A DNA stretch of 64,000 bases from Candidatus Cybelea sp. (GTDB lineage Bacteria > Vulcanimicrobiota > Vulcanimicrobiia > Vulcanimicrobiales > Vulcanimicrobiaceae). Below are positions 9,815-24,094 of this stretch, piece after piece. Under the pieces are notes generated by a model. That model did no database searches. It was not told where the DNA came from and saw only the letters and a program-made list of their open reading frames with translations. Both the position numbers and the translations under genes were made by a program. Location: NCBI GenBank assembly GCA_049578945.1, contig JBAUMX010000101.1, forward strand, positions 8,864 to 72,863, in the 5' to 3' direction. Position 1 is the first letter of the stretch. Each line of letters starts with the position of its first letter.

Positions 9815-12353
9815 GAACAAATCTCTCCTCGGCCGCAGACAACGCTTCCTCGACGGCCTGATCTTCAGTCATTGCTGCACCGACCGCCATCAGCTTTGCG
9901 GTCGTATCGGCGCCCATCGCCTCGCGCACGATGTTAAGCACTCGATCGTGTTCCTGTTGTTGCCAGAGCACTACTGCCGAGCCCGTCGTCGCGAGGCGTG
10001 CATCGATGAAGCCCAAAATCCGCGCGGCTCTTGCATACGGCGATGACGCGCGCAGCGACTCGGCTCGCGGCCGCAATACGGCGATCGCCGCGAGACGCTG
10101 GAGCGCCCACACGGCGTACACGTCCCTCTGGTAATCGCGCGCCAGGATGAGCGCTTCGCGCGCCCGTACCCAGGCCTCGTCGTATCGAGCCAACGCAATA
10201 AGATACCCCGACATGCTGCTAAGCAGAACGACATCGAAGGAGTTCATCTCTTTGCATCGGCGAACCAGAGCGAGCCCTTCCTCCACGTGTTGAAGTGCTA
10301 ACTGCGGATTACCCGCGAGAAACTCGCACATGCTTAGGTCCGCCATCGCCACACCTCTAGCACGCTCAGTACCCATTGCTTCGTAGATATGCAGTGCCTC
10401 TGCAACGCAGCTGCGCGCCGAGATAATGTCGCCGTCTAGCGAAGCGAAGTACCCGCAGCAGCGCAGTATGTACGCGGCGAGACGGCGATTGTCTAATCTG
10501 CGGGCCGCCGTCAGCGCTTCTTCTTGCAACAGCTTAGCTTCGGCAAATCGGTCAAGCGATGCCAACGCATAGCCCGCAAGACTCTGCGCGCGAGCGACTC
10601 CCAGCGCGTCATCGAGGGTTCGGTAGAGCGCGATAGCGTTTTGGGCACTCTTAAGCTGCGTCTCGTAGTCACGCAGATGCCAGGCGACGGTCGCCTCCGC
10701 CAAGCTGAGACTCGCGCGCACGTCGGTCGGCGTCTGCTCGTCAATTAGCCGGCACGCAGCCTCTAGCCAACGCCGCCCTTCCAGCGGCGTAAAATATTCC
10801 CAGAGTACGCGAAGCCCACCAACGAGCCGTTGTCCTAAGACCACGTTGCCGCGCGCGGTCAGTGACCAACGCATCGCCGCCCGCCAGTTGTCCACTTCGT
10901 TTCGGCCTAGGTCGAGCCATACGCCGTCAGGCTCAGCATCGTATGCGCGCTCGAGCTGCTCCGCCAGGACCAAACATGCGACCGCATGACGGCCGGCCAC
11001 CCTTTGCCGTTCCCCGCGCGTAGCGAGCTTCTCAGCCGCATACTGCCGGAACGACTCTAGGAGCCAATAGCGCGGCTCGCTTCCGTCAAGATCTGCCGTT
11101 ACCATCGACTTGTCAACGAGCGATGAGTTGAGGTTAACGATGTCGGCCGTCGCGAGCTCTTCGCCGGCGCAGACCGCTTCCGCGCTGGCCAGCGTGCAGC
11201 CGCCGGCAAAGACCGAGAGGCGCTCAAAAAGCCGCTGCTCCCCTGCAGAAAGAGAGTCGTAACTCCAATCGATCGTCGCGCGCATGGTCTGCTGACGCGG
11301 CAGGGCCGTGCGCTCGCCGCCGGCGAGAACTCTAAAGCGATCTTCGAGCCTGGTCGTGAGCGCCGTGATCGACAGTGAGTTCACTCGAGCGGCGGCCAGT
11401 TCGATCGCTAGCGGAATGCCGTCCAAGTGCCCGCAGAGTGCGGCCACGTCACACGCATTTTCATCCGTGAGCGTAAATCGATGATCGACGGCGCGAGCGC
11501 GATCGCTAAAGAGCGCGATCGCCCCATACGTCGTAGCATCCGTTGCGCGCAGCTGAGTGGCTGCCTCGGGCGATGGGAAACTCAGTGGAGGTAGCCGGTA
11601 TGAACGTTCACCCGCAGACCGCAGTGGTGCGCGGCTGGTCGCAAGGATCCGAAGGTCCGGGCAGCCCGCTAGTAGGGCATGGACAACCGTCGCAGCCTGC
11701 GTTATGAGATGCTCGCAGTTGTCGAGCACCAGCAACGGCGACTTGTTCCTGAGATAAGCCAGCAGCGTCCCGAGCAGCGGACGGTTGGACACTTCTTGCA
11801 CGCCCAAACTCGAAGCGATCGCCGCGGCAACAAAAGATGGATCGCCTACCGGCGCTAGCGCGACGAACCAGACCCCATCGTTAGCGGTGTCATTCGGCAC
11901 AGTGGCGACGCGCAGCGCCATCTGGGTCTTGCCGACTCCTCCGCTTCCGGTGAGCGTAACCAGCCGATGCTCGCGTAGGAGTGCAGCGATCTCCTCTAGC
12001 TCACGTTCGCGCCCCACAAAACTGGCCAGCGAGAGCGGCAGGTTTGATGGAGCTGCGCCAACCCAAGGACCCACAGTAACCGGGGCTCCGCCGTCGCGCA
12101 GCAACACCCAGCGCGCAGCGGCCGCCTCAAGCTCCCTGCGCTGCTCGTCGTCAAGCGCCAGCGCACTGGCCAACAGCGCAAGCGTCGCGCGCTGTGGCGT
12201 GCGGCGATACCCTCGCTCCAACGCTCTGATTCCATGCGCGCTCATCCCGGCGCGTTCGGCGAGGCCCTCTTGTGAGAGTCCCGCGGCGAGACGAAAGCTG
12301 CGGAGGAGCATCCCGAAATCCGATGGGCCTGCAGCTTGGCCCTCGTTTTCCAC
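9807..12353 (-). CDS. STAND-type transcriptional regulator: XRE-family HTH + NB-ARC-like P-loop NTPase + TPR (paralog 1)
   Basis: N-terminal HTH: FRLAAGLSQEGLAERAGMSAHGIRALERGYRRTPQRATL. Then FVGRERELEEI, Walker A GSGGVGKTQ, Walker B-like LLVLDNCEH, and a long TPR-like C-terminus. The start is moved to GTG 12353 (VENEGQAAGPSDFG) because it aligns with MEKEGRAAGPPDFG of paralog 2 and the upstream nucleotides are also homologous. Confidence 0.88.
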   Translation of the reverse strand: MENEGQAAGPSDFGMLLRSFRLAAGLSQEGLAERAGMSAHGIRALERGYRRTPQRATLALLASALALDDEQRRELEAAAARWVLLRDGGAPVTVGPWVGAAPSNLPLSLASFVGRERELEEIAALLREHRLVTLTGSGGVGKTQMALRVATVPNDTANDGVWFVALAPVGDPSFVAAAIASSLGVQEVSNRPLLGTLLAYLRNKSPLLVLDNCEHLITQAATVVHALLAGCPDLRILATSRAPLRSAGERSYRLPPLSFPSPEAATQLRATDATTYGAIALFSDRARAVDHRFTLTDENACDVAALCGHLDGIPLAIELAAARVNSLSITALTTRLEDRFRVLAGGERTALPRQQTMRATIDWSYDSLSAGEQRLFERLSVFAGGCTLASAEAVCAGEELATADIVNLNSSLVDKSMVTADLDGSEPRYWLLESFRQYAAEKLATRGERQRVAGRHAVACLVLAEQLERAYDAEPDGVWLDLGRNEVDNWRAAMRWSLTARGNVVLGQRLVGGLRVLWEYFTPLEGRRWLEAACRLIDEQTPTDVRASLSLAEATVAWHLRDYETQLKSAQNAIALYRTLDDALGVARAQSLAGYALASLDRFAEAKLLQEEALTAARRLDNRRLAAYILRCCGYFASLDGDIISARSCVAEALHIYEAMGTERARGVAMADLSMCEFLAGNPQLALQHVEEGLALVRRCKEMNSFDVVLLSSMSGYLIALARYDEAWVRAREALILARDYQRDVYAVWALQRLAAIAVLRPRAESLRASSPYARAARILGFIDARLATTGSAVVLWQQQEHDRVLNIVREAMGADTTAKLMAVGAAMTEDQAVEEALSAAEERFVHA

Positions 12354-12393
12354 GGTATTGGGAAGTTCGGGCCAAGCTCCGCAACACCCCCAG

Positions 12394-12506
12394 AGGCCGA
12401 GCGCCGCCAAGTTGTGCGGGTGGTTGTGCCTTGCTGCCGTCTCGGTGCGCGTTATGATTGCCTTGCGGCGAGGCAGCAGTCTTGGCGCACTTGCGAAGGA
12501 GCTTTT
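12394..12506 (+). promoter_or_regulatory. conserved promoter/leader module, copy 1 (upstream of S53 peptidase 1; divergent to regulator 1)
   Basis: Core AAGTTGTGCGGGTGGTTGTG at 12409..12428. -35-like TTGCTG at 12431..12436 and -10-like TATGAT at 12453..12458. SD context TGCGAAGGAGCTTTTATG ends at the ATG at 12507. Same block structure as the copies at 15081, 19385 and 20890. Confidence 0.6.
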
Positions 12507-13709
12507 ATGCTGCGAAGCTTAAAATTGTTTGCGCCGTTCGCTGCCGCACTCATGGTCGCGGGATGCGGTGCCGGGGGTTCCGGCGTGCCGGCGACGATCG
12601 GCCAATCAACGTCGGAAGCGCACCCGATCCCGCAGTGGCAGGCGCAGAACCTTGCCCGGCGGGCCTGTCCTGATGCGGCCCCCGGTGAGATGCAGTGTCA
12701 GCTGCTGATTTTAAACAGGAGCCCTCAAGACAAAGAGCCGGGGTGGGGGGCGCGAGATATCGAGGCGGCCTATAACTTCCCTTCGTCGAGCAAGGGCGCC
12801 GGACAGATCGTCGCGATTGTCGACTACAACGATAATCCCAACGTCGGCTCGGACCTCGCGGTGTATCGCCGGCACTACGGTCTGCCGAAGGCGAAGTTCT
12901 ACAAATACAATCAGGACGGCCAACAGGGCCACTATCCCACGGGCCAGGTAGCCGACGGCCGTGAGATCGACCTGGACGTGGAGATGGTTTCGGCCGCGTG
13001 TCCGAACTGCACGATCTATCTCATCGAGTCAAACAACAGCGGCCCTCGCTCGACCGAAAAAGCCGAGAGCGAAGCGGTGACACTGGGCGCACATATCGTC
13101 AGCAACAGCGGTATATGCGAAGGCTTTACGGGTTGCGACGAGAGCAAAGCATTCAAGACTCCAGGCGTAACCTACGTTGCAGCCGCAGGCGACTCTGCCT
13201 ACGGCATCGGATCACCGATGGCGCTCGCGACCGTCGTTTCGGTCGGCGGCACGCTGCTGTCAAAAAGCGGGTCGACTTATAGCGAAATCGTCTGGCCCGA
13301 TTCGGGCGGCGGCTGCGCAACGCAGGTCGCCAAACCGTCGTGGCAGCACGACTCCGGGTGCTCCGGACGCACGACAAACGACGTTTCAGCGGTCGCTTGG
13401 AACGTCGCGATGTACGATACGTACGGCGAAGGTGGTTGGACTAGAATCGGCGGCACGAGCGTTGCGACGCCGATTGTGGCTTCTGCGTTTGCGCTCGCCG
13501 GCAATGCCACGAAACAAGAAGGCGGTAAAATCTTCTGGACGTTAAGAGAAAAGAAACTCCAGCGGTTTCTGCACGTCATCAGCAGCGGCACCAACGGTTG
13601 CCCCCACGACCTCGAGGGCAGCTACCTCTGCACCGCCGGAACCGACGAGTTCGGTAGTTATTCCGGTCCGACCGGCTGGGGCACGCCCAATGGCATCGGC
13701 GCGTTCTGA
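12507..13709 (+). CDS. S53 (sedolisin/kumamolisin-like) serine peptidase, lipoprotein (paralog 1)
   Basis: Start taken at ATG 12507 (MLRSLKLFAPFAAALMVAGC, lipobox). GQIVAIVDYNDNPNVGSDLAVYRRHYGLP matches the S53 N-terminal catalytic-domain pattern. EIDLDVE supplies the Glu/Asp pair, AAAGDSAYG the oxyanion Asp, and IGGTSVATP the nucleophile Ser. Confidence 0.8.
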   Translation: MLRSLKLFAPFAAALMVAGCGAGGSGVPATIGQSTSEAHPIPQWQAQNLARRACPDAAPGEMQCQLLILNRSPQDKEPGWGARDIEAAYNFPSSSKGAGQIVAIVDYNDNPNVGSDLAVYRRHYGLPKAKFYKYNQDGQQGHYPTGQVADGREIDLDVEMVSAACPNCTIYLIESNNSGPRSTEKAESEAVTLGAHIVSNSGICEGFTGCDESKAFKTPGVTYVAAAGDSAYGIGSPMALATVVSVGGTLLSKSGSTYSEIVWPDSGGGCATQVAKPSWQHDSGCSGRTTNDVSAVAWNVAMYDTYGEGGWTRIGGTSVATPIVASAFALAGNATKQEGGKIFWTLREKKLQRFLHVISSGTNGCPHDLEGSYLCTAGTDEFGSYSGPTGWGTPNGIGAF

Positions 13710-13742
13710 CGTGAATCTACGAATGAAAGGAAACCCGGCGCC

Positions 13743-14945
13743 ATGCACTTTTCATTAGCGACTTCGAATCGCGCCTCGCTCGGTCTCGTCGCCGCACTGC
13801 TCGCGGGGTGTTCCAACACATCGTCCGACTCCCAGGTCCTGCCATTCGGTTCGCCCGGCACAACACAATCGGCTGCTCGTCAGCGTGGCGGCCCCGACAA
13901 TGTCGTGCAGTTCGTCTACGTGGCGAACTCGGGCTCCAACAACGTCTCCGCCTATAGCATCGGGGCCGGCGGCGCCCTCACACCGTTGTCCGGCTCGCCA
14001 TTTAGAGCGGGCGCCGGTGCGTACGGCATTGCGGTCGATCCGACCGGCGCGTTCGCGTATGTAGCGAATTTTAATTCCAACAACGTTTCGGCTTACACGA
14101 TCGATTCGATCAGCGGCGTCTTGACAAAGGTAAAGGGGTCGCCGTTCGCTGCCGGCAGTGGCGCCACAAGCGTTGCGATGGATCCTACGGGCAAGTTCGC
14201 CTACGTGGCGAACTTTAGTTCTAACAACGTTTCTGCTTATACAATCGACGCGACGAGCGGCGCACTGACGCCGATTGACGGATCACCATTTAACGTGGGC
14301 GCCGCGCCTGAAACGGTAGCAATCGATCCTAGCGGCAAGTTTGCCTACGTCCCAAACGGCGGCTCCAACAATGTTTCCGCCTTTGCCCTCGACGCTGCCA
14401 GCGGTGCGTTGAAAACGATCAAAGGCTCACCGTTCAAGGCGGGCACGACCCCGGTCAGCATGACAATCGATCCGACCGGCAAGTTCGCTTATGCAGCTAA
14501 CTTTTGGTCTGACAACATTTCCGGCTATGCCATTGACCCAACCAGCGGCGCACTGAGAATGCTTCCTGGTTCGCCTCTCGTGGGTTCCCCCGAAGGTGTC
14601 GCGGTGAGCCCGACCGGCAGATTCGCCTACGTACTTAACGATGGCAGCAAAGCCAGCCCGAGCATCTCAGGCTACAGCATCGACTCGACGAGAGGCACGT
14701 TGACGCCGGTGCCGGGGTCGCCATTTCTAGACACGGGCTCATTCGCGTTAGGTGGCGTAGTCGATGCCACGAGCAGGTTTGCGTATATTGCAAACGACGG
14801 CTCGAGCAACGTTTCCGCCTATACGATCGCGCCCAACGGCGCGCTCAAGAAGGTGAAGGGGTCGCCGTTTGCCGCCGGCAGCTATCCCGCCAGCATCGCC
14901 GCGTGCCGAGTCAAGGCCGGCAAATGCATTCCGCCGCCATTGTAG
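13743..14945 (+). CDS. lactonase-like 7-bladed beta-propeller (YVTN-type repeat) lipoprotein (paralog 1)
   Basis: Signal peptide with lipobox LLAGCSN. About 7 repeats of the form (F)AYVANxxSNNVSAYxIDxxSGALTPxxGSPFxAGxxPxxxAxDPTGKF. The 33-nt junction with the S53 gene is conserved in the second cassette. Confidence 0.8.
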   Translation: MHFSLATSNRASLGLVAALLAGCSNTSSDSQVLPFGSPGTTQSAARQRGGPDNVVQFVYVANSGSNNVSAYSIGAGGALTPLSGSPFRAGAGAYGIAVDPTGAFAYVANFNSNNVSAYTIDSISGVLTKVKGSPFAAGSGATSVAMDPTGKFAYVANFSSNNVSAYTIDATSGALTPIDGSPFNVGAAPETVAIDPSGKFAYVPNGGSNNVSAFALDAASGALKTIKGSPFKAGTTPVSMTIDPTGKFAYAANFWSDNISGYAIDPTSGALRMLPGSPLVGSPEGVAVSPTGRFAYVLNDGSKASPSISGYSIDSTRGTLTPVPGSPFLDTGSFALGGVVDATSRFAYIANDGSSNVSAYTIAPNGALKKVKGSPFAAGSYPASIAACRVKAGKCIPPPL

Positions 14946-15025
14946 AGGAGCACTCACGTCGGAATGCCGTCACTTAAGCTCTAAGCGTCTGCGCTGCCGC
15001 TGCGACAGGTCGCACACTTAAACAC
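14946..15025 (+). pseudogene. decayed 5' remnant of the small-lipoprotein family seen intact-ish at 23509
   Basis: GGAGCACTC..GT..ATG followed by GCTCTAAGCGTCTGCGCTGCCGCTGCG. This is about 23/27 identical to GCTCTAAGCGTTTGCGTTGCAGCCGCC in the signal-peptide region of the 23509 gene. Here it is out of frame with its ATG (14964) and runs into a TAA after 6 codons. Confidence 0.4.
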
Positions 15026-15070
15026 GGCTTCGCGATTTCGCGAGGCCGTCGTTCTATCTGTGTTTTCACG
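15026..15070 (+). terminator. putative intrinsic terminator after propeller gene 1
   Basis: GGCTTCGCG-ATTT-CGCGAGGCC gives a 9-bp stem with one G-U pair (15026..15047). It is followed by the T-rich GTCGTTCTATCTGTGTTTTC and lies immediately upstream of leader copy 2. Confidence 0.45.
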
Positions 15071-15080
15071 ACCGAGAAGT

Positions 15081-15216
15081 CTAGCGCCGGCAAGTTGTGC
15101 GGGTGGTTGTGTCTTCCTGCGGTGCCGCTACGCCGTCATGATGGTGTGACGAAGGCAGTCGGCGGTGCGCGTTTGCGAACACGAAGGTTGCCAGCTGCAA
15201 AAAGGAGCAGTTTTAG
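15081..15216 (+). promoter_or_regulatory. conserved promoter/leader module, copy 2 (upstream of HAF-repeat lipoprotein)
   Basis: Core AAGTTGTGCGGGTGGTTGTG at 15092..15111. TTCCTG at 15114..15119 and TCATGAT at 15136..15142. SD context TGCAAAAAGGAGCAGTTTTAGATG. The leader is longer and more diverged than in copies 3 and 4. Confidence 0.55.
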
Positions 15217-16554
15217 ATGAACATCTCAAATTCGGTTTCTTATGCGTTGGGCGTATTATCGGCTGCAGCGATACTTGGCGGCTGTAGCAACGGCGAGTCG
15301 CCGTCGAACTTCGCCCCTTCAGGAGCGACGCAGCAGAGCGCTACCCAAGCGGTATCCAATGCCCAAGCCCGAGGAAGCGTCACTCAGTATTACCTCATCA
15401 ATCTCGGCGTTATTGGCGGAAAGTATTCGGCCGACCGCGGCATTAACAATAAGGGCTGGATCACCGGCTTTTCCACACTGCGGGGAAGCAAGAGTGCACA
15501 CGCCGTTCTGTGGCGAGCCGGACGCCTCACTGACCTCGGCACGCTCGGGGGCCCGAACAGTGCCTTCGGCGGCCCCGTTAAGAATACGCGCGGCGAGCTC
15601 GCGGGAGCCTCTCAAGTCTCCCAAACCGACCCGTATCTGGAAAACTTTTGCAGCTTTTCGAGTATATTCGACCAGACCCATCTCTGCCAGGGGTTTCGCT
15701 GGCAGAATGGCGTGATGACGGCGCTTCCGACGTTAGGCGGAAACAACAGCATTGCCAACGGCGTGAACAACGGCGGTCAGATCGTGGGTGCGGCCGAAAC
15801 CAGCACCAGAGGCCACCGCTGCGGTAAACCTCAACGCTTCGATTACTACGGGATGATCTGGCAGCCGAACGGCACGACGGTCACTCTGCCACCGTACCCC
15901 GGCGACACCATTTCCCTTGCGGAAGCGATCAGCAATAGCGGTGATGTCGTAGGGTACTCCGGCCGCTGCGGAAACCTCGACGACGCTTCAACGGCGCGAC
16001 ACGCATTGCTCTGGCAGAGCGGCTCGGCGATCGACCTCGGCAATCTCGGGGGCACCGTGAACAACGTCCCGCGTGCGATCAATAACCGGGGGCAGATCGT
16101 GGGAAATTCCGAAGTTGCGGGAAACGCGACCTCGCATGCCTTCCTCTGGCAAAACGGCGTGATGAGCCACCTCGGCACGCTGCCCGGCGATGTCTTTAGC
16201 GAAGCCAACGGGATAAACGACAAAGGCCAGATCGTCGGCGTGTCCTGCCCCGCGAGCGGAACCTGCCGCGGTTTCATTTGGCAAAATGGCTCGATGACCG
16301 ACCTAAACCTCCTGGTGCCACCGAAGTCACTGTATGTATTTTACGGCGAAGACATCAACGATAGCGGGCAGATCACCGCCATTGCAACAAATACGACGAA
16401 GCCGGTCTTTACGCAACGAGCGGTCGTGCTGATTCCGGGGAAAAAATCCGACGTGATCCCCGGTTCGGCTGCGCGTCCGGTCACGCTGCCCGAAAGCGTG
16501 CGAGTACAGCTCCGGCAACTCCAAGGTATAGCTCGCCCATTCGCGAGCTTGTAA
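15217..16554 (+). CDS. HAF-family extracellular repeat lipoprotein
   Basis: Lipobox ILGGCSN. Repeats of the type HA(V/L/F)LWxxGxxxDLGTLGGxxSxAxxINNxGQIVGxS, including a literal SHAFLWQNGVMSHLGTLPG. Confidence 0.8.
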   Translation: MNISNSVSYALGVLSAAAILGGCSNGESPSNFAPSGATQQSATQAVSNAQARGSVTQYYLINLGVIGGKYSADRGINNKGWITGFSTLRGSKSAHAVLWRAGRLTDLGTLGGPNSAFGGPVKNTRGELAGASQVSQTDPYLENFCSFSSIFDQTHLCQGFRWQNGVMTALPTLGGNNSIANGVNNGGQIVGAAETSTRGHRCGKPQRFDYYGMIWQPNGTTVTLPPYPGDTISLAEAISNSGDVVGYSGRCGNLDDASTARHALLWQSGSAIDLGNLGGTVNNVPRAINNRGQIVGNSEVAGNATSHAFLWQNGVMSHLGTLPGDVFSEANGINDKGQIVGVSCPASGTCRGFIWQNGSMTDLNLLVPPKSLYVFYGEDINDSGQITAIATNTTKPVFTQRAVVLIPGKKSDVIPGSAARPVTLPESVRVQLRQLQGIARPFASL

Positions 16555-16566
16555 CTCGACTGAAAT

Positions 16567-16590
16567 GCGGGCCCGCTCCAGCGGGCCCGC
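16567..16590. terminator. perfect 10-bp GC hairpin between convergent genes
   Basis: GCGGGCCCGC-TCCA-GCGGGCCCGC sits 13 nt after the HAF gene stop. There is no clean U-run on either side, so its terminator function is inferred only from position. Confidence 0.4.
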
Positions 16591-16821
16591 TGCATAAAAG
16601 CAGCAGGAGCCGCCCGCGAGCCGCCCGCGCAAAACGGCGTGAAAAAGCGGCGACGGACCGGTCCTGATCTGTTGGGGATACAGCAATGGGATGCGCGGGA
16701 CACGCTAAGGGCAACAGTCTGCTAAAGAATCAGAACCCGCACTGGAAACAGCGGCTTCGCGTCGCTAGGCCGTTGTTCTTTTGGGTTTGTTTCGCGCTCC
16801 AGCGCGCAACCACTGGCACGA

Positions 16822-19341
16822 CTATATTTCCGACGCTTCCGCGACGGCCTGATGTTCCGTCATCGCTGCGCCATCGGCCATCAGGTTCGCGACCAGCTCG
16901 GCGCCCATTGCATCGCGCAGCACGGCGAGGACCCGATCGTATTCTTGTTTTCCTAGAATCTCGCGCGCAAACCCCATTGCTGCGATTTGGGCGTCGGCGA
17001 AACCCAAGATCCGCGCGGCTCGAGCGTAAGCTTTGGGCGTGCCTTCTGCGCCGACTTGCGGCGTCAGCGCTGCCACGTATCCGAGATGCTGTAGCGCATA
17101 CATGGCGAAAGCGTCGTGGCCGCGTTCACGCGCCAGGGCGAGCGCCTCGCGTGCGCGTTCTTGAGCCTCGTCGTACCGAGCCGATGAGACGAGAAATAGC
17201 GATGCGTTATTAGTAAGTACTAAGCGGACGATTCGCGTTTCGTTGAGCGCGCCCAGAACAGCAAGCGCGTTCGTTGAATGGTGAACTGCTAGTTCTCCGT
17301 TGCCCGTCTGATATTCGACCTCAGCAAGGTCATCTTCCACCATTGCAACCATGAGTTTGTTACCAATCGCCTCACATATCACCAGCACTTCGGCAAGGTA
17401 ACCGCGGGCCGCGATGAGATCACCAGCCCTAGCACTGGCATATCCAAGGCAGCGCAATGTGAAGAGGATCAGCCGACGATTCTCAAGTCGGCGAGCGACC
17501 GCAAGCACTTCTTCGAGCCGCGGCTTTGCCTCTGCACCGCGTCCAAGAGCCGTGAGCGCATAACCCGCGATGCTCTGCGCGCGGGCGGCTCCGAGCAAGT
17601 CCCCGACGGCGCGGTAGGACGCGATAGCGCTCTCGCTATTCGAAAGCATTATTTTGGGTTCGCCGAAATCCGTAGCGTTCATAGCCTCGCTCAGACTAAG
17701 CCCGGCAAGAACGCTCGTTGGGGTTTGCTCGTCAACCAAGTCGCGCGCCGCTCCGAGCCAGCGCCGCGCTTCAACGCTCGCGAAACTTCGCCAAACCACA
17801 CTGAACTCCCCGAGGAGTCGTTGCCCCAATACAACGTCGCCACTGTCAGCAAGTGCCCATCGCAATGCAGTCCGCCAGTTGTCGAGCTCCTCGCGAGCAA
17901 TCACGCGCCAAACCCCTTCAGACTCGCTCTCATCCATGCGTTCGAGCCGCTCGGCGAGTTGAAAGTATCCGTGGGCATGACGGTGCGCTATAGAGTGCAG
18001 CTCGCCGCGCATCGCGAGTTTTTCCCGCGCGTACTGCCGAAACGACTCCAAGAGCCGATAGCGCGGCTCGATGCCGTCAAAATCTGCGATGACCATCGAC
18101 TTGTCGGCAAGAGATGAGATGTGGTTGACGATTTCGGCCGTCGCAACGTCTTCGCCGGCGCAAACCGCTTCCGCGCTGACCAGCGTACAGCCGCCCGCGA
18201 AGACCGAGAGGCGCTCGAAAACGCGCTGCTCCGACGCAGAGAGCAGATTGTAACTCCAATCGATCGTCGCGCGCATGGTCTGCTGTCGGGGCAACGCCGT
18301 GCGCTCGCCGCCGGCGAGAACTCTAAAGCGATCTTCGAGCTTCTCCGCTAGCGCTGTAATCGATAGCGCGTTTACTCGAGCGGCGGCCAGTTCAATCGCC
18401 AGCGGAATGCCGTCCAAGCGCCGGCAGAGGTCGGCCAAAGCAGGAGCAGTTTCGTCGGTGAGCGTGAACCGATGGTCGACGGCGCGAGCGCGATCGCGGA
18501 AGAGTACGATGGCTCCATACGCCGTGGCATCCGTTGCGCACAGCCGAGCAACTGCCCCGCGCGATGGTGTACTCAAGGACGGGAGTCGGTAGGTACGTTC
18601 GCCAGCGGCGCGCAGCGGTTCGCGGCTGGTCGCGAGGATCCGAAGGTGCGGGCAGCCTGCGAGGAGAGCGTAGGAAACCGTCGCAGCCTGCGTAACGACG
18701 TGCTCGCAGTTATCGAGAAGCAGCAGCATCGCCCTATTCTTGAGATGCGCTAGCAGCGTCTCAAGCGTGGAACGATTTGGCGCCTCTTGCACGTGCAGCG
18801 CCGAGGCAATCGCGGCCGGCACTAATGAGGGATCGCTGAGCGGCGAGAGTCCGACGAACGACACGGTGCAGGCATCGCTGAGCGCGGTTGCGACCTGTAG
18901 CGCGGTCTGGGTCTTGCCGACTCCTCCACTTCCCGTGAGCGTGACCAGGCGATGCTCGCGTACGAGCGTTGCGATCTCATTGAGCTCACGTTCGCGACCA
19001 ACGAAGCTGGCCAACGAGAGCGGCAGAACCGAGCTAGGCGTGTCGGACCACGGGCCTGCGAGGACCGAGGCTCTCCCTCCATCGCGCAGCAACACCCAGC
19101 GCGCAGCGGCCACCTCGAGCTCCTGGCGCTGCTCGTCGCTAAGCGCCAACGCACCAGCCAGCAGCGCGAGCGTTCCGCGTTGCGGCGTGCGGCGATATCC
19201 ACGCTCCAGCGCTCTGATTCCATGAACGCTCATCCCGGCGTGTTCGGCGAGCGCCTCTTGCGAGAGTCCCGCGACGAGCCGGAAGCTGCGCAGGAGCGCC
19301 CCGAAATCAGGCGGGCCCGCAGCGCGGCCCTCCTTTTCCAT
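16822..19341 (-). CDS. STAND-type transcriptional regulator: XRE-family HTH + NB-ARC-like P-loop NTPase + TPR (paralog 2)
   Basis: 839 aa and colinear with 9807..12353 over the full length. Identical runs include RFRVLAGGERTALPRQQTMRATIDWSY and LSVFAGGCTL. Walker A GSGGVGKTQ; LLLLDNCEH. Confidence 0.9.
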   Translation of the reverse strand: MEKEGRAAGPPDFGALLRSFRLVAGLSQEALAEHAGMSVHGIRALERGYRRTPQRGTLALLAGALALSDEQRQELEVAAARWVLLRDGGRASVLAGPWSDTPSSVLPLSLASFVGRERELNEIATLVREHRLVTLTGSGGVGKTQTALQVATALSDACTVSFVGLSPLSDPSLVPAAIASALHVQEAPNRSTLETLLAHLKNRAMLLLLDNCEHVVTQAATVSYALLAGCPHLRILATSREPLRAAGERTYRLPSLSTPSRGAVARLCATDATAYGAIVLFRDRARAVDHRFTLTDETAPALADLCRRLDGIPLAIELAAARVNALSITALAEKLEDRFRVLAGGERTALPRQQTMRATIDWSYNLLSASEQRVFERLSVFAGGCTLVSAEAVCAGEDVATAEIVNHISSLADKSMVIADFDGIEPRYRLLESFRQYAREKLAMRGELHSIAHRHAHGYFQLAERLERMDESESEGVWRVIAREELDNWRTALRWALADSGDVVLGQRLLGEFSVVWRSFASVEARRWLGAARDLVDEQTPTSVLAGLSLSEAMNATDFGEPKIMLSNSESAIASYRAVGDLLGAARAQSIAGYALTALGRGAEAKPRLEEVLAVARRLENRRLILFTLRCLGYASARAGDLIAARGYLAEVLVICEAIGNKLMVAMVEDDLAEVEYQTGNGELAVHHSTNALAVLGALNETRIVRLVLTNNASLFLVSSARYDEAQERAREALALARERGHDAFAMYALQHLGYVAALTPQVGAEGTPKAYARAARILGFADAQIAAMGFAREILGKQEYDRVLAVLRDAMGAELVANLMADGAAMTEHQAVAEASEI

Positions 19342-19384
19342 AATATTGTGAAGTTCGCGCCAAGCTTGGTGCCACCCGCTGAGG

Positions 19385-19496
19385 GCGACTGCCGGAAACT
19401 TGTGCGGGTGGTTGTGTCTTGTTGCGCTTTCGATGCGGCGTCATGATTACGTTGCGATGAGGCAACCGCCTTACCGCGCTGCAAAGGAGCATTTGT
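19385..19496 (+). promoter_or_regulatory. conserved promoter/leader module, copy 3 (upstream of GloVer-repeat lipoprotein; divergent to regulator 2)
   Basis: Core AACTTGTGCGGGTGGTTGTG at 19397..19416. TTGTTG at 19419..19424 and TCATGATT at 19441..19448. Hairpin GTTGC-GATGAG-GCAAC. SD context TGCAAAGGAGCATTTGTATG. Confidence 0.6.
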
Positions 19497-20837
19497 ATGA
19501 AGAGAATCTCACGCGTCTGTTGCGCTCTCAGCGTTTGCGCGACCGCTGCGGTCGTTACCGGTTGCGGCGGCGCGGCCCAGCTCCCAAGCCCTATGGCTCA
19601 GACGCCGTTCGGCAACACAAGCACGGTCGACCGAGTCGCTTCCTCAAGCGGCACCGCGAAGGATGCAGAGCGGACTCGTTATACGAAAACGATCCTCTAT
19701 AGCTTCCGGAGCGGAAACGACGGAATAGGCCCGTCCGGGCGTCTGCTCGACGAGGGCGGCACGTTCTACGGCGAGACCGCCGGTGGTGGAGGCTCGAGCG
19801 GGTGCTACAATCCGGGTCCCGGGTGCGGCACAATCTTCAAGTTGACGCCTTCCGGAAAAAAGTACGCGGAGACTATTCTCTATCGATTCGGGGGCCCGAA
19901 CGGAAACGACGGTCAGGTTCCGTCTGGCGGCGTTGTGTACAAAAGCGGTGCACTCTTTGGTACGACCAGTTTTGGCGGTAACTACAACCTCTACGCATGC
20001 TACAACATCGGTTGCGGAACGGTTTTTAAACTTCCGCTTTCTGGGAGCGGCTCCGAGCAGATACTCTTCGCTTTCTCCGGAACCAACGGCGCCCTTGTCT
20101 CGAGGGGCGTCATCGATAAGGGCGGCACGCTCTTCGGAACGACCAACTATGAAGGTGAGTACGGCTACGGAACGGTGTTCGACCTGACGCCATCCGGAGC
20201 AGGCTATACCGAGAACACGTTGCACGAATTCGCGGACGGAAACGACGGAGCGCTATCACCGGCCGGCGTCATCGACGTCGATGGATCGCTCTACGGCGTG
20301 ACCGGAGTGGGCGGAGCGCACAATTACGGCACGGTGTACAGACTGACGCCTTCCGCTAGCGGCTACACTGAGACTATTCTCTATAGCTTTACCGGGGGAA
20401 GCGACGGTAAGAATACGGGCGCAGGCGTCATCGATGTTAAGGGATCTCTGTATGGCACGACCGGCGGCGGCGGAGCGCACAATTTCGGGACCGTGTTCAA
20501 GCTGACGCCCTCCGGTAGCGGCTATGTTGAGAGCACACTTTACAGTTTCAAAGGAGGAAGGGACGCCGCAGGCACCTACTCGACCCTTACTGAACAGGGC
20601 GGCACGATCTACGGCACGAGCGAACACGGCGGACTTGTCAACTATGGGACGGTATTCAAGTTGACGCCTTCGGGCAGCGGCTACACCGAAAGCGTCATCT
20701 ACCGTTTCAAGGGCGGAACGGACGGCGCGGATCCATATTGGGGTGTGGTCGCCGACAAGAACGGTACGCTTTACAGCACAACGGCGACCGGCGGCCCGTT
20801 CGGCAACGGAACCGTCTTCGCGTTGACCCCGCACTAG
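19497..20837 (+). CDS. Gloeo_Verruco (GloVer) tandem-repeat lipoprotein
   Basis: Lipobox VVTGCGG. About 8 repeats of the type G(T/S)LYGTTxxGGxxxYGTVFKLTPSGSGYTExxLYSFxGGxDGxxP. Confidence 0.75.
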   Translation: MKRISRVCCALSVCATAAVVTGCGGAAQLPSPMAQTPFGNTSTVDRVASSSGTAKDAERTRYTKTILYSFRSGNDGIGPSGRLLDEGGTFYGETAGGGGSSGCYNPGPGCGTIFKLTPSGKKYAETILYRFGGPNGNDGQVPSGGVVYKSGALFGTTSFGGNYNLYACYNIGCGTVFKLPLSGSGSEQILFAFSGTNGALVSRGVIDKGGTLFGTTNYEGEYGYGTVFDLTPSGAGYTENTLHEFADGNDGALSPAGVIDVDGSLYGVTGVGGAHNYGTVYRLTPSASGYTETILYSFTGGSDGKNTGAGVIDVKGSLYGTTGGGGAHNFGTVFKLTPSGSGYVESTLYSFKGGRDAAGTYSTLTEQGGTIYGTSEHGGLVNYGTVFKLTPSGSGYTESVIYRFKGGTDGADPYWGVVADKNGTLYSTTATGGPFGNGTVFALTPH

Positions 20838-20889
20838 GAGCCCTGTTGTGTCCTAACCTCGCACTCTTGGCAGGCTCGAGCCGAGGTTC

Positions 20890-21018
20890 CAACCACCCGT
20901 ACAAAGCCGAGCGCCGGCCAAGTTGTGCGGGTGGTTGTGTCTTGTTGCGACCTCCGGACGCTGTCATGATTGAGTTGCGATGAGGCAACCGCCTTGCCGC
21001 GCTTGCGAAGGAGCTTTT
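20890..21018 (+). promoter_or_regulatory. conserved promoter/leader module, copy 4 (upstream of S53 peptidase 2), with upstream inverted partner
   Basis: Core AAGTTGTGCGGGTGGTTGTG at 20920..20939. TTGTTG at 20942..20947 and TCATGATT at 20964..20971. Same GTTGC-GATGAG-GCAAC hairpin as copy 3. SD context TGCGAAGGAGCTTTTATG. CAACCACCCGTACAA at 20890..20904 is the near-perfect reverse complement of the core. Confidence 0.6.
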
Positions 21019-22233
21019 ATGCTGCGAAGCTTTAAATTGTTCGCGACATTCGCTGCTGCACTCGGCATCGCGGGCTGCAATGCCGCCGGCTCCCCCAGTG
21101 TGCCGGGAGCGATTGGCCAATCTGCGTCGCCGACGCACTCGATCCCTCAATGGCAGGCACAGAACCTCGCGCGGCGCGCTTGTCCAGAAGCAGGTCCCGG
21201 CGACGCTCAATGCGAGGCTCTGATCATAAACAAGAGCCCTGAAAGCAGGGCGTCCGGCTGGGGTCCCCGCGATATTGAGGCCGCGTATGGCCTTCCATCG
21301 TCGAGCAAAGGCGCGGGGCAGATCGTCGCGATCATCGACTACAACGACAACCCCAACGTCGCCTCCGATCTCGCCGTGTACCGGCGCCATTACGGTCTGC
21401 CGAAGGCGAAATTCTACAAGTTCAACCAGGACGGGCAACAGGGCCACTATCCTAAGGGCCAGGTAGAAGACGGCGGTGAGATCGACCTCGACGTCGACAT
21501 GGTTTCGGCGGCTTGTCCGAACTGCACGATCTATCTGATCGAGTCCAACAACAACGGCATTCATTCACTTGAAAAAGCCGAAGCAGAGGCAGTAAAGCTG
21601 GGCGCGCACATTATCAGCAACAGCTTCATATGTTATCACTCGCAGGATTGTGGCGACCCCAACGTTTCAAGCTACTTCGACAGCCCGGGCGTAACGTATC
21701 TTGGCGCCGCGGGCGACATCGCTTATGGCGTGGGAGCGCCGAGCGCACTCGCAAGCGTCGTCTCGATCGGCGGCACCCTCCTCTCCAAGAGCGGCTCGAT
21801 CTATAGCGAGGTTGTCTGGCAAGATACCGGCGGCGGCTGCGCTACACAAATTACCAAGCCGTCGTGGCAGCACGATCCTGGCTGCTCCGGACGCACGGCC
21901 AACGACATCTCCGCCGTCGCTTGGGATGTCGCCACCTACGACACGTACGGCAGCGGCGGCTGGAATACCAACGGCGGCACAAGCAGCGCCACACCAATCA
22001 TTGCCGGCGCGTTTGCGCTTGCCGGCAACGCCGAAAAACAAAACGGCGACGAAATCCTCTGGACGTTAGCGGAAAAGAACCGTCAGCGGGATCTGCACGT
22101 CATTAGCAGCGGCAACGACGGTTGTCCTCACGACCTCAGGGGCAGCTATCTCTGCACTGCCGGAACCGATGAGTTTGGAACTTACTCAGGCCCAGCCGGC
22201 TGGGGAACTCCCAACGGAACCGGCGCCCTCTGA
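21019..22233 (+). CDS. S53 (sedolisin/kumamolisin-like) serine peptidase, lipoprotein (paralog 2)
   Basis: Start taken at ATG 21019 (MLRSFKLFATFAAALGIAGC). Long identical runs with paralog 1 (NPNV.SDLAVYRRHYGLPKAKFYK, MVSAACPNCTIYLIESNN). EIDLDVD, AAGDIAYG and NGGTSSATP are present. Confidence 0.8.
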   Translation: MLRSFKLFATFAAALGIAGCNAAGSPSVPGAIGQSASPTHSIPQWQAQNLARRACPEAGPGDAQCEALIINKSPESRASGWGPRDIEAAYGLPSSSKGAGQIVAIIDYNDNPNVASDLAVYRRHYGLPKAKFYKFNQDGQQGHYPKGQVEDGGEIDLDVDMVSAACPNCTIYLIESNNNGIHSLEKAEAEAVKLGAHIISNSFICYHSQDCGDPNVSSYFDSPGVTYLGAAGDIAYGVGAPSALASVVSIGGTLLSKSGSIYSEVVWQDTGGGCATQITKPSWQHDPGCSGRTANDISAVAWDVATYDTYGSGGWNTNGGTSSATPIIAGAFALAGNAEKQNGDEILWTLAEKNRQRDLHVISSGNDGCPHDLRGSYLCTAGTDEFGTYSGPAGWGTPNGTGAL

Positions 22234-22265
22234 ACCTCGCTACGAGTGAAAGGAAACTCGGCACC

Positions 22266-23489
22266 ATGCGCTTACCAATAGCTAGCGCCAATCGCGCATC
22301 GATCGTTCTCATGGCAGTGCTGCTCGCGAGCTGCTCCAACACATCGCCCGGCTCGCAGGCCCTGCCGCTCGGTTCGCCCGGTGCCGAGCCGTTAGCGCAT
22401 CGTCCCGGCGGCAGCGTCGACGTCGCCGTGCAGTACGCGTACGTGGCAAATTTTAGTTCCGGCAACGTCTCCGCTTTCGCGATTGCGGCCGACGGCGCGT
22501 TGACGCCGGTTGGGGGCTCGCCGTTTAAGGCGGACAAGGATTCCTATGGCCTGGCAATTGACCCTGTGGGCAGGTTCGTCTACGTTACGAACTTTGGCTC
22601 CAGCAACGTTTCTGCCTTTGCCGTCGACGCGGCTAGCGGCGCGCTGAAAAAGGTACGCGGATCCCCATTTGTGACTGGTGCGGGTCCCATCGGCCTTGCC
22701 GTCGACCCGACGGGCAAGTTCGCCTATATAAGCGACGGTAATTCCAACAACGTTTCTGCCTATGCGATTGACGCCAGCACTGGTGCGCTGACGCCGATTG
22801 CGGGATCGCCGTTTCGCGCGGGCCACAACCCCTATGGAGTGACGGTCGACGGCAAGGGCAAATTCGTTTACGTTCCCGGCGAACTGTCCAACTCGGTTGC
22901 GGCGTTCGCCATCGACGCGACGACCGGCGCGCTGACGCCAGTGAAGGGGTCGCCGTTTGCGGCGGGCATCGGACCGGAGAGCGTCACACTAGATCCCAGC
23001 GGAAAGTTCGCGTACGTCGCGAGCTGGGAGTCCCAAAATGTTTATGGCTTCGCGGTTGATGCAGCCAGCGGGGCGCTGAAGCCGTTAGCGGGATCGCCGT
23101 TTGCGGACCAGGCTTCCGGTCCTGCACAAATAGTGGTCACTCCTACGGGCAGATACGCCTATCTGACTAACTCTGCCGTGTGCGGCGGTTGCGGGGGCGG
23201 CCGCCACATTGGCGGGTATTCGATTGACTCGGCGCGAGGTACGTTGACCCCGCTGCCGGGATCACCGTTTAAGGACGTGGGCATTGGCCCCCTGGGTGAG
23301 GCCATCGATCCCAGAGGCAAGTTCGTCTACATCACAAACATCGATACGAACAACATTTCGGTCTACGCGGTCGCGAGCAGCGGCGCGCTCAAGAAGGTGA
23401 AGGGGTCGCCGTTTGCGGCCGGCACTACGCCAGCCGGCATCTCCGTGTGCCGGGTAACGGCCGGCAAATGCATCCCCGCGCCGTTATAG
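22266..23489 (+). CDS. lactonase-like 7-bladed beta-propeller lipoprotein (paralog 2)
   Basis: Lipobox LLASCSN. Same repeat type as 13743..14945. The C-terminal tail CRVTAGKCIPAPL matches CRVKAGKCIPPPL of paralog 1. Confidence 0.8.
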   Translation: MRLPIASANRASIVLMAVLLASCSNTSPGSQALPLGSPGAEPLAHRPGGSVDVAVQYAYVANFSSGNVSAFAIAADGALTPVGGSPFKADKDSYGLAIDPVGRFVYVTNFGSSNVSAFAVDAASGALKKVRGSPFVTGAGPIGLAVDPTGKFAYISDGNSNNVSAYAIDASTGALTPIAGSPFRAGHNPYGVTVDGKGKFVYVPGELSNSVAAFAIDATTGALTPVKGSPFAAGIGPESVTLDPSGKFAYVASWESQNVYGFAVDAASGALKPLAGSPFADQASGPAQIVVTPTGRYAYLTNSAVCGGCGGGRHIGGYSIDSARGTLTPLPGSPFKDVGIGPLGEAIDPRGKFVYITNIDTNNISVYAVASSGALKKVKGSPFAAGTTPAGISVCRVTAGKCIPAPL

Positions 23490-23508: not shown

Positions 23509-24075
23509 ATGAAAACAATTGCGCAGACCCCTCACGCTCTAAGCGTTTGCGTTGCAGCCGCCATGCTCGCGAGTTGTGGCGGATCGACGTTTGGGTCGTT
23601 CCCAAATCCTGCTATGCAGATGTACGCCAGCAACGCGGGCACTTAGCCGCCGCCGAGCGACGCGAAGCCTTTCGGCCGAGTCCGCAACTCTTCCGGCACT
23701 GACAGCCTCACCGGAACGGAGAAACTAGGGCAGTGCCATTTCCATTACATCTTCCAGGGGAACATTGTTGTCGGCGAAGCATATCGTACGAATTTTCACG
23801 CTCACGGACACGCGACAGGGCCGGATAGTGGATCCTTTGTTGCCAACGGGCACTGGGGATTCAGCTACTATGAGGGTCTTGCTTTTGGGAAGTTTGTAGA
23901 ACGCTTCACCATAAAGTCAGGCGCATCGCCGGTGTCGGGAACGATTCGTGCAGGTGGGGTCGGCGGCGGCTCTTGCACGTCTTTCGGCCCCGAAATCGTG
24001 CCTTATGGGAGCGGGCAAGCGAACATTGAAACCATCCAGCAGGGCACTTTCAGCGAGACGCTCGACGGGCTGTAG
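23509..24075 (+). pseudogene. small lipoprotein gene interrupted by one in-frame TAG (codon 46)
   Basis: ATG 23509 (SD GGGAGC) gives MKTIAQTPHALSVCVAAAMLASCGGS... An in-frame TAG lies at 23644..23646. The same frame then stays open for 142 more codons to the TAG at 24073..24075. The C-terminal part (GHATGPDSGSFVANG...TFSETLDGL) is paralogous to the next gene (GKATGPYPGTFTASG...LSETLNGF). The downstream part is missing from the ORF track because it has no start codon. Confidence 0.65.
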
Positions 24076-24094
24076 GCAAAGGAGCATTTGTACG

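Follow-up and report, generated by a model that had tools for sequence, protein, structure and literature searches.

The stretch of DNA considered here, positions 8,864 to 72,863 of contig JBAUMX010000101.1 (64,000 nucleotides (nt); hereafter the window), comes from a metagenome-assembled genome (MAG) of Candidatus Cybelea, a member of the Eremiobacterota (Vulcanimicrobiota) that has been recovered repeatedly from Danish soil metagenomes. It carries two genes for paralogous regulators, which combine an XRE-type helix-turn-helix (HTH) domain with a STAND P-loop NTPase and a TPR sensor, as well as a set of lipoprotein genes, and in front of the latter lie four copies of one promoter-like module. 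Each copy is made up of a conserved upstream site (block A), a -10-like hexamer (block B) and a leader. Here we address the role of this module and its relation to the two regulators. An initial annotation, made from the sequence of the region alone, had already drawn attention to the four copies, and what it claimed is taken up where our results bear on it. The features of the locus are as follows.

9807-12353, minus strand: regulator 1, 848 aa, with an XRE-type HTH, a STAND P-loop NTPase and a C-terminal TPR sensor
12409-12437, plus strand: block A of copy 1, with GTTGTG at 12411-12416 and 12423-12428 and the -35-like hexamer TTGCTG at 12431-12436; located in a 153-nt divergent spacer facing regulator 1
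12453-12458, plus strand: -10-like hexamer TATGAT of copy 1, 16 nt past the -35-like hexamer; predicted transcription start site near 12465
12465-12506, plus strand: leader of copy 1, with a predicted hairpin at 12465-12488 and the Shine-Dalgarno sequence AAGGAG at 12496-12501
12507-14945, plus strand: target operon 1, consisting of PepA (12507-13709), an S53-like peptidase lipoprotein, and PropA (13743-14945)
15092-15142, plus strand: copy 2, with block A at 15092-15120 (core 15095-15111), TTCCTG at 15114-15119 and CATGAT at 15137-15142
15217-16554, plus strand: target 2, a HAF-repeat lipoprotein (NCBIfam TIGR02913, E 1e-49)
16822-19341, minus strand: regulator 2, 839 aa, a paralogue of regulator 1
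19397-19447, plus strand: copy 3, with block A at 19397-19425 (core 19400-19416), TTGTTG at 19419-19424 and CATGAT at 19442-19447; located in a 155-nt divergent spacer facing regulator 2
19454-19477 and 20977-21000, plus strand: predicted leader hairpins of copy 3 and copy 4, respectively
19497-20837, plus strand: target 3, a GloVer-repeat lipoprotein (NCBIfam TIGR03803, E 1.5e-55)
20889-20903, minus strand: inverted copy of the block A core (14/15), 19 nt upstream of the 17-mer core of copy 4
20920-20970, plus strand: copy 4, with block A at 20920-20948 (core 20923-20939), TTGTTG at 20942-20947 and CATGAT at 20965-20970
21019-23489, plus strand: target operon 4, consisting of PepB (21019-22233) and PropB (22266-23489), paralogues of PepA and PropA
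23509-24601, plus strand: two small lipoprotein genes with interrupted frames, directly after PropB

All four copies contain one and the same 17-mer, TTGTGCGGGTGGTTGTG, which is found without mismatches at 12412, 15095, 19400 and 20923, in every case on the plus strand, between genes and co-oriented with the gene that follows. When up to three mismatches are allowed, the window holds six matches where 0.10 would be expected, and none of 100 dinucleotide-preserving shuffles reached six. A profile derived from 11 block A copies, which was run on both the window and the loci retrieved from other genomes (see below), detected only the four known copies in the 64 kb. The anatomy given by the initial annotation, namely four intergenic segments sharing the same blocks, largely stands. 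Block A starts at 12409, 15092, 19397 and 20920; its 20-nt core, AAGTTGTGCGGGTGGTTGTG, is identical in three copies and has one substitution in the fourth (the copy at 19397 reads AAC); and block B follows as TATGAT at 12453 and as CATGAT at 15137, 19442 and 20965. The stretch between the blocks, put at 15-16 nt, measures 14-15 nt with the same block definitions. From the end of the 17-mer to the -10-like hexamer there are 24 nt in copy 1 and 25 nt in copies 2, 3 and 4. The direct repeat GTTGTG-N6-GTTGTG had also been recognized correctly: its two units are 12 bp apart within a site of 20-24 nt that lies directly upstream of the -35-like hexamer. If transcription starts 7 nt past the -10, as predicted, the GTTGTG units would be positioned at about -55 to -37.

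This arrangement had been interpreted as a -35/-10 promoter pair with an operator abutting the -35. Comparison across species (see below) supports the -10 element, the spacing and the position of the proposed operator, whereas the -35 turns out to be weak. The -35-like hexamer is found 16-18 nt upstream of the -10 and reads TTGCTG, TTCCTG, TTGTTG, TTACCG, TTTCGG or yet otherwise, only its TT being conserved across species, and the sequence between -35 and -10 varies freely. In copy 4, CATGAT is preceded by TGT and is thus extended -10-like. A generic promoter and terminator scan of the window reported a terminator-like hairpin at 15024-15049, ahead of copy 2, and listed none of the four promoters, because it demanded 9 of 12 matches and their -35 is too weak for that. 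A poor -35 of which only the TT is kept fits a factor-dependent promoter.

The genes behind the four copies all encode lipoproteins, a lipobox being present in the translations of all target proteins. Their annotation as S53 peptidases, a HAF-repeat protein and a GloVer-repeat protein, next to HTH-STAND regulators, agrees with the matches obtained: kumamolisin, an S53 peptidase, is the nearest match of the peptidases (E 2.7e-13), the two repeat proteins match the NCBIfam models given above, and the regulators match HTH_31, STAND and TPR models. PropA and PropB are both 7-bladed lactonase-type beta-propeller lipoproteins. What does not hold is that the four downstream lipoprotein genes are non-homologous, since PepA and PepB are paralogues with 75% identity. 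They belong to a duplicated regulator-peptidase-propeller segment. The peptidase operons behind copies 1 and 4 are paralogous to each other, and so are the regulator spacers that contain copies 1 and 3. Copies 3 and 4, said to be almost identical over about 100 nt, are 85% identical over 84 nt. The accompanying claim that the conservation is not a by-product of gene duplication is true only in part. Some of the similarity does come from duplication; the block A core, however, is identical at 17 of 17 positions in the four copies, whereas the DNA identity of the surrounding duplicated regulator/peptidase segments is 63-84%.

Related loci were collected in two ways that depend on the motif and in one that does not. 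The exact 17-mer was searched against species-representative genomes (all figures from this search are among the matches listed), a 20-mer was searched against JGI metagenomes, and, independently of the motif, the genomic contexts of ten members of the regulator family were retrieved by protein similarity (loci L128-L138). Counts of block A sites given here cover the 64-kb window and these retrieved loci. The first search yielded at least seven matches in five Eremiobacterota species, and in all seven a -10-like hexamer follows at a distance of 25 nt, with a leader, a Shine-Dalgarno sequence and a start codon behind it; the hexamer contains ATGAT in five of them and reads CATCAT and TATGTT in the other two. 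Among the chance matches listed from unrelated taxa, ATGAT occurs at the corresponding place in 2 of 115. The JGI scan returned two real loci, both of the regulator / peptidase-propeller type, and one chance match. At least eight related species or metagenomic contigs have the module with its layout, its orientation and its 25-nt phasing relative to the -10 preserved. Profile searching revealed diverged copies as well, with one change at L112:5392, two at L022:7488 and one at L022:5884, all of them within the CG(G/A)GT(G/T) that separates the GTTGTG units; both hexamers of L022:5884 are intact. In these three copies and in L128 the substitutions affect the inter-unit spacer or the base 5' of the distal unit, and never the hexamers.

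The window copies, the motif-derived loci, the diverged copies and the protein-derived L128 together form a close group of 17 sites. The -10 of these sites keeps a constant place and reads TATGAT, CATGAT or something very similar: the gap from the 17-mer is 25 nt in 16 of the 17 sites (three of them re-registered by one base) and 24 nt in copy 1, and A at position 2 together with T at position 6, as in a sigma-70 -10 element, is present in all 17. A regulator gene is directly faced by 11 of these sites, usually across a divergent spacer of ~155 nt, and most of the remaining ones are one to three genes away from a regulator. The two such spacers in the window, also given earlier as ~155 nt, are 153 and 155 nt long when counted from the GTG start, and copies 2 and 4 are not adjacent to a regulator gene. 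This comparative evidence supports the proposal that the two HTH-STAND regulators are the likely binders of block A.

The linkage is kept in rather different contexts. At L127 the regulator protein is only 60% identical, yet block A and its flanks are unchanged. In a sister species (JBAVSO010000146) the gene order is Reg1 / HAF-PepA-PropA and Reg2 / PepB-PropB-GloVer, as opposed to Reg1 / PepA-PropA, HAF, Reg2 / GloVer and then PepB-PropB in the window, and despite this permutation block A still faces each regulator. In L085 and L126, GloVer comes after PropB, from which it is separated by a 52-nt promoter-less spacer ending in GCTTGCAAAGGAGCATTCGCATG. This order implies that the arrangement in the window arose by GloVer moving to the front together with a duplication of the promoter and leader; the junction of the rearrangement lies within a shared TTGCRAAGGAGC segment. 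Such a move would account for the similarity between copies 3 and 4 despite their unrelated downstream genes, a similarity that is in part historical. As a separate observation, the same 17-mer occurs four times with a 33-nt period in a Myxococcota MAG (L058, 3394-3509), twice, 96 nt apart, in Rappaport israeli (L030, 1-113), and also in many Kitasatospora, Kribbella and Thermomonas/Lysobacteraceae genomes, presumably as unrelated tandem repeats or conserved coding segments.

Turning to the regulators, the N-terminal alignment of regulator 1 with regulator 2 and the orthologues places its start at the GTG at 12353 and not at the TTG of the longest open reading frame (ORF). The two proteins share 80-84% identity in the HTH and 34-58% in the TPR sensor; with a near-identical HTH and a diverged TPR part they would recognise one and the same DNA site but respond to different signals. 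In Pfam, regulator 1 matches HTH_31 (E 5e-12), AAA_22, nSTAND1, NB-ARC and TPR_12. HTH_31 and HTH_3 cover residues 12-94, and the DNA-binding domain is thus fused to the NTPase. Matches of the NTPase to AAA_22, nSTAND1 and NB-ARC are weak but consistent, and both a Walker A motif (GSGGVGKT, residue 136 in regulator 1) and a Walker B motif (LLVLDN/LLLLDN) are present, as in STAND/NB-ARC proteins. In the AlphaFold model of regulator 2 (mean pLDDT 82.8), residues 13-86 are predicted to form a five-helix Cro/C1-type bundle, which would be followed by a ~330-residue module of NTPase and winged helix and by an all-helical repeat at residues ~448-838; the latter agrees with the TPR_12 and TPR_10 matches and points to a C-terminal repeat sensor. 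A fold search with this model found the STAND-TPR protein 6mfv as the best match (E 1.2e-11, 735 columns), and the next structural matches were Apaf-1 and the plant NLRs ZAR1 and NRC. In NCBIfam, the NTPase region is weakly matched by the AfsR model (E 3e-14). A sequence search of the PDB with the regulator gave nothing beyond TPR noise, and a literature search for XRE-NB-ARC-TPR regulators and for regulators of Eremiobacterota returned nothing relevant. An Avs-like role in defence was also considered and dropped, as PADLOC matched the HTH alone (control-protein and CapH-like models) and no defence-type STAND.

Neither a promoter nor a Shine-Dalgarno sequence of the regulator genes themselves was found in the divergent spacers. 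A block GGC(C/G)CGAACTT (GGCCCGAACTT) is conserved 9 nt before the regulator GTG/ATG in all orthologues (12354-12380 and 19342-19368 in the window, minus strand), and the regulator transcripts may be leaderless or nearly so. At its other end, regulator 1 overlaps an Amidohydro_3 gene (8237-9820) by 14 nt.

The family to which the two regulators belong is very large: all 8000 of the 8000 scored candidates were found at E ≤ 1e-20, and there are several members per genome. The top 120 members are 55-100% identical, and the few named by organism come from Cybelea, Tumulicola or Eremiobacteraeota MAGs. Ten of the regulator genes in L128-L138, about 12 in all, are divergent from their target and have the same promoter architecture in the spacer. 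It consists of two or three direct TGTG-type units 12-13 bp apart, the last of them abutting TTACNG/TTTCNG (TTnnnG), followed after 17±1 nt by a -10, which in distant paralogues reads CATGAT, CATAGT, GACAAT or GATTAT. The sequence of the unit is specific to the paralogue and tracks a hypervariable residue of the recognition helix. Among 56 members this position, which follows MS-x, is occupied by H, N, Q, D or E within an otherwise almost invariant neighbourhood. In the AlphaFold model the residue opens helix 3 (residues 39-47); the equivalent residue contacts bases in the lambda and 434 repressors. H-type regulators (helix MS-x-H-G) go with GTTGTG units in the window, in L128 (TTTGTGCGGGTTGTTGTGCCTT) and in L136, where there are three units. 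Q-type regulators have GTTGTA in the proximal unit, and in L133 (GTTGTA-N6-GTTGTA) both units have changed together. N- and D-type regulators (L129-L132) are accompanied by other TGTG/TGTC units, such as TTGTCCGA and TTGTCGG in L130 (D-type) and AAGTGTGC-N5-AAGTGTGC in L132 (N-type); the latter repeat is found again ahead of another propeller gene nearby, one that does not face the regulator. Since L130 and L132 are located on the same 3.2-Mb contig of one genome, the differences between units are not species effects.

Several other features of these loci are worth recording. Family regulators may be in tandem or a few kb apart (L134, 1340-4004; L129, 1-600). In L134, P0115 is the second gene of a tandem pair, the first being called as a 5'-truncated 590-aa product, possibly frameshifted. 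In L136 a SARP-like BTAD/AAA_16 regulator is found beside the HAF target gene. Directly after four distant paralogous regulators there is a gene for an SBP_bac_5 (OppA/DppA-type peptide-binding) protein, at the following positions.

L129, 7557-9194: SBP_bac_5 gene
L130, 7523-9133: SBP_bac_5 gene
L132, 6523-8109: SBP_bac_5 gene
L133, 6544-8109: SBP_bac_5 gene

These neighbours raise the possibility that the TPR sensors may respond to peptides.

Based on these observations, we consider it likely that every copy of the module is a factor-dependent sigma-70-type promoter with a direct-repeat site bound by the adjacent STAND regulators, which probably act as activators. Each promoter would combine a good -10, (C/T)ATGAT, with a poor -35, TTnnnG, and the N-terminal XRE-type HTH of the regulators encoded at 9807-12353 and 16822-19341 would be the binder. 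Activation driven by ligand and ATP would give rise to a head-to-tail oligomer beside the -35, and the oligomer would recruit RNA polymerase in a class-II style. The surface lipoproteins switched on in this way would form a small regulon comprising the S53 peptidases, the beta-propellers, the HAF-repeat and GloVer-repeat proteins and the small lipoproteins, and the common leader would have been passed on by descent and by recombination between promoter-gene cassettes. What the sequences themselves show is the anatomy of the module, how it is conserved, placed and phased, and that it is linked to the regulator family; the binding of the regulators, activation over repression, the transcription start site and the signal are what we infer from this. 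Known regulators of the STAND class are activators that depend on a ligand and bind next to or over a poor -35. A poor -35, an upstream site in fixed phase and a STAND regulator, taken together, follow the same logic as in MalT, GutR and AfsR.

It is instructive to compare the regulators with these and other characterised systems. The RNPP proteins (PlcR, NprR, Rgg) couple an XRE HTH to a TPR domain that senses peptides, and among their targets are secreted proteases and surface proteins; they have no NTPase domain and bind as dimers to palindromic boxes. The regulators studied here likewise have an N-terminal XRE-type HTH and TPR, and Rap structures matched their TPR part in the fold search, which is a generic similarity. 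However, they possess an NTPase between HTH and TPR and their conserved site is a direct repeat, which sets them apart from RNPP. Some of the paralogous regulators adjoin OppA-type genes, and no signalling-peptide gene was identified at these loci. MalT of Escherichia coli is a STAND activator that oligomerises under the action of inducer and ATP; in its promoters, which have no good -35, short asymmetric repeats directly precede that element. Common to MalT and the present case are the STAND-type protein (activation being assumed here by analogy), the weak -35 and the repeats just upstream of it. MalT differs in its C-terminal LuxR-type HTH, in its sensor, in lacking an N-terminal XRE domain and in the unrelated sequence of its box. 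GutR of Bacillus subtilis, ~830 aa in length, starts with an HTH, continues with a STAND NTPase and ends in TPR repeats, and its gene is divergent from the operon that it activates; binding of the ligand, glucitol, promotes ATP binding and activation. Set side by side by description only, GutR and our regulators are alike in size, domain order and divergent target. GutR is single-copy, whereas here there are several copies per genome, and no counterpart to the GutR site or to the glucitol ligand was identified at these loci. PMC13581612 names GutR as an example of a non-immune STAND regulator and gives Poon et al. 2001 as the source.

AfsR of Streptomyces coelicolor (SARP-NOD-TPR) likewise has its DNA-binding domain linked to an NTPase of the STAND/NB-ARC type and to a TPR sensor. 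A pair of SARP protomers, side by side on two 11-bp direct repeats from -40 to -19, compensates for a poor -35 (PMC10936776). As in our case, the promoter with the afs box has a poor -35, a usable -10 and two direct repeats about one helical turn apart by or over the -35 (PMC10936776). There are also clear differences. AfsR has an OmpR-type winged helix and a BTA domain instead of the XRE/Cro-type HTH (HTH_31) found here; its repeats are 11 bp apart and centred at -29.5 in the -35/-10 spacer, whereas ours are 12 bp apart, near -45 and upstream of the -35; and its targets are antibiotic regulators rather than lipoprotein genes. Neither Trans_reg_C nor BTAD matched our regulators, whose N-terminus is HTH_31, and the repeats end about 25 nt before the -10 hexamer, unlike in an afs box. 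Because the DNA-binding domain, the repeat period and the position of the site all differ from AfsR, we regard the regulators as its analogues and not as SARPs. The mechanism itself is not new, as both a local transcription factor with its operator and a STAND activator with repeats by a weak -35 have precedents.

A number of observations weigh against the proposed activation by the adjacent regulators. Most of the close-group sites came from exact 17-mer matching, so that the identity of their core is partly by construction, and the unbiased sample is small, consisting of L128, L136 and the diverged copies in L112 and L022. One species has two exact copies 80 kb apart (L016 and L029), both ahead of lipoprotein genes, one of which encodes a 198-aa homologue of the decayed genes at 23509-24601 and the other is a 70-aa ORF; at neither site is there a regulator in the 8 kb retrieved (>3 kb away). 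In L135 the gene for the H-type regulator lacks a divergent arrangement, and no block A is found within 4 kb of it. The Q-type L138 has mixed units (GTTGTG-N7-GTTGTA), and the correlation between helix residue and repeat rests on about ten loci that are phylogenetically non-independent. The direct repeat gave weak results in a per-spacer shuffle test (p 0.013 to 0.9), in which copy 3 and L134 did not yield it as the top pair. As the single-spacer test barely beats shuffled sequence, the argument for the direct repeat rests on its recurrence across loci. XRE-type HTH domains usually bind inverted repeats and an inverted half-site, CACCCGCA, does exist next to block A, so the geometry of the site may differ from the one proposed. 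Finally, position alone cannot tell an activator from a repressor.

The same site and the same binders might indeed work in the opposite sense, the regulators being repressors or mainly autoregulators that are released by ligand from a palindromic operator formed by block A and CACCCGCA. XRE/Cro-type HTH proteins are typically dimeric repressors acting on inverted repeats. Moreover, the 8-nt inverted half-site is present in most close-group copies and precedes block A by ~22 nt in copies 1 and 3 as well as in most orthologues; in copy 4 there is the 14/15 inverted core copy; in L131 the first unit forms part of a perfect 8-nt inverted repeat; and two window copies and most orthologues share their spacers with regulator genes. 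Nonetheless, we think repression unlikely. The site stops upstream of the -35 and covers neither the -10 nor the start site, the -35 itself is poor and unconserved, as is typical of activator-dependent promoters, and several distant paralogues keep the direct repeats without the inverted half-site. In addition, characterised STAND regulators, among them MalT, AfsR and GutR, are activators, and copies 2 and 4 have no regulator gene next to them. The inverted core copy and the half-site might themselves serve as an additional binding site of a regulator or as an operator for autoregulation, or might fold into a hairpin within the upstream or divergent transcript.

Another possibility is that the regulators are linked to the promoters by neighbourhood only and that block A is read by an ECF-type sigma factor, with GGTTGTG as its -35, or by a global factor. 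The targets are exported or lipid-anchored, as is common in ECF regulons, and the exact copies in L016 and L029 are >3 kb from any regulator homologue. We nevertheless regard this as very improbable, because the 25 nt from GGTTGTG to the sole conserved downstream hexamer are too long for a sigma -35/-10 pair, and that hexamer is sigma-70-like (A at position 2, T at position 6). A single global factor would not be expected to have paralogue-specific repeats within one genome, yet the repeat differs between L130 and L132 and follows the recognition helix.

The leader requires separate consideration. It is 48-49 nt long in copies 1, 3 and 4, as opposed to 74 nt of different sequence in copy 2. 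The initiation context TGC(A/G)AAGGAGC...ATG, thought to be shared by all four leaders, is confined to copies 1, 3 and 4; a piece of it does precede the decayed gene at 24095, as noted before (31 nt, 84% alike, at 24076-24106). Among the close-group sites the leader shows about the same conservation as block A, also before unrelated genes (copies 3, 4 and L029), and for copies 1, 3 and 4 a hairpin near the 5' end, GCGAYGAGGC-loop-GCCTTGCCGC, is predicted. One could therefore suppose that the transcribed leader is a functional cis-regulatory RNA (a riboswitch, an attenuator or a protein-binding hairpin) and that block A is secondary. This we find hardly probable at all. The Rfam and covariation scan suggested by the initial annotation brought no match, either in the whole window at the gathering score or in 12300-21100 at E up to 1, and a compensatory change in only one of 14 predicted pairs (covariation term -0.17 kcal/mol); folding z-scores range from -0.6 to -2.4, and the Shine-Dalgarno sequence is not sequestered but stays unpaired. 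HAF genes, including that of copy 2, use another, longer leader, and the leaders of distant paralogues are unrelated. In L128 (Ca. Cybelea GCA_035939175) the whole leader is absent, the ATG of the peptidase being 7 nt past the hexamer CACAAT (L128, 5002-5010); the N-terminus of this orthologous peptidase reads MHASFKFFAPLAVALAMGGC, and the gene caller had run the regulator ORF across the spacer. The position of this ATG, just where the transcript would begin, suggests a leaderless peptidase mRNA in L128 and speaks for block B as a -10. As the leader is restricted to the close group and missing from one orthologue, it is not essential to the regulatory device. It looks like sequence gained by descent or recombination, at most a hairpin that stabilises the mRNA, and not like an RNA switch.

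The idea that the module is a non-functional or selfish repeat, be it leftovers of duplication and gene conversion or a REP/MITE-like element, is scarcely credible. In its favour, the region is a regulator-peptidase-propeller segmental duplication, gene order is reshuffled between species with breakpoints at the shared leader, and copy 4 carries an inverted core copy. Against it, the core is invariant next to diverged duplicated coding DNA and a varying -35/-10 spacer, all 17 close-group copies (the four window copies among them) lie between genes, point the same way and keep a constant distance to the -10 and the start codon rather than being scattered, terminal inverted repeats and target duplications are absent, there are only four copies in 64 kb and two real matches in the JGI metagenome scan, and the architecture is kept in paralogues with unalignable sequence.

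Some remarks can be added on the target genes. The two small interrupted genes after PropB both carry the shared Shine-Dalgarno context and are probably part of the PropB transcription unit. Their frames are broken by a stop after 46 codons at about 23645 and by MAISANH-stop at 24095, which could be either real decay or long-read homopolymer errors; the intact 198-aa homologue in L029 has a block A promoter of its own. Tandem repeats are found within coding regions, with a 144-nt period corresponding to the blades in both propeller genes (13909-14870 and 22432-23414) and a 159-nt period in the GloVer gene (19826-20724).

It is tempting to speculate further, although we put this forward only tentatively and with more doubt than conviction, that the window represents one node in a large lineage-specific expansion, within Eremiobacterota, of thousands of XRE-STAND-TPR one-component receptors. 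Each of them would have a private direct-repeat operator, read mainly by the one hypervariable residue (H, N, Q, D or E) that begins the recognition helix, and its own set of surface lipoproteins and proteases, and would possibly respond to imported-peptide signals, in keeping with the OppA-type neighbours. The promoter-leader modules would then serve as portable recombination cassettes that move lipoprotein genes between regulators, as the permuted gene orders might indicate. The size of the regulator family, the apparent recognition code and the shuffling of promoter cassettes add to the interest of the system. The promoters described here provide a first concrete promoter and regulon model for Eremiobacterota, a phylum that is widespread in soil and peat and has almost no genetics. 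They also link an abundant and unstudied family of XRE HTH, STAND NTPase and TPR proteins to its likely DNA sites and targets, and the family could serve as a natural data set both for the DNA-recognition code and for the contact between a STAND oligomer and RNA polymerase.

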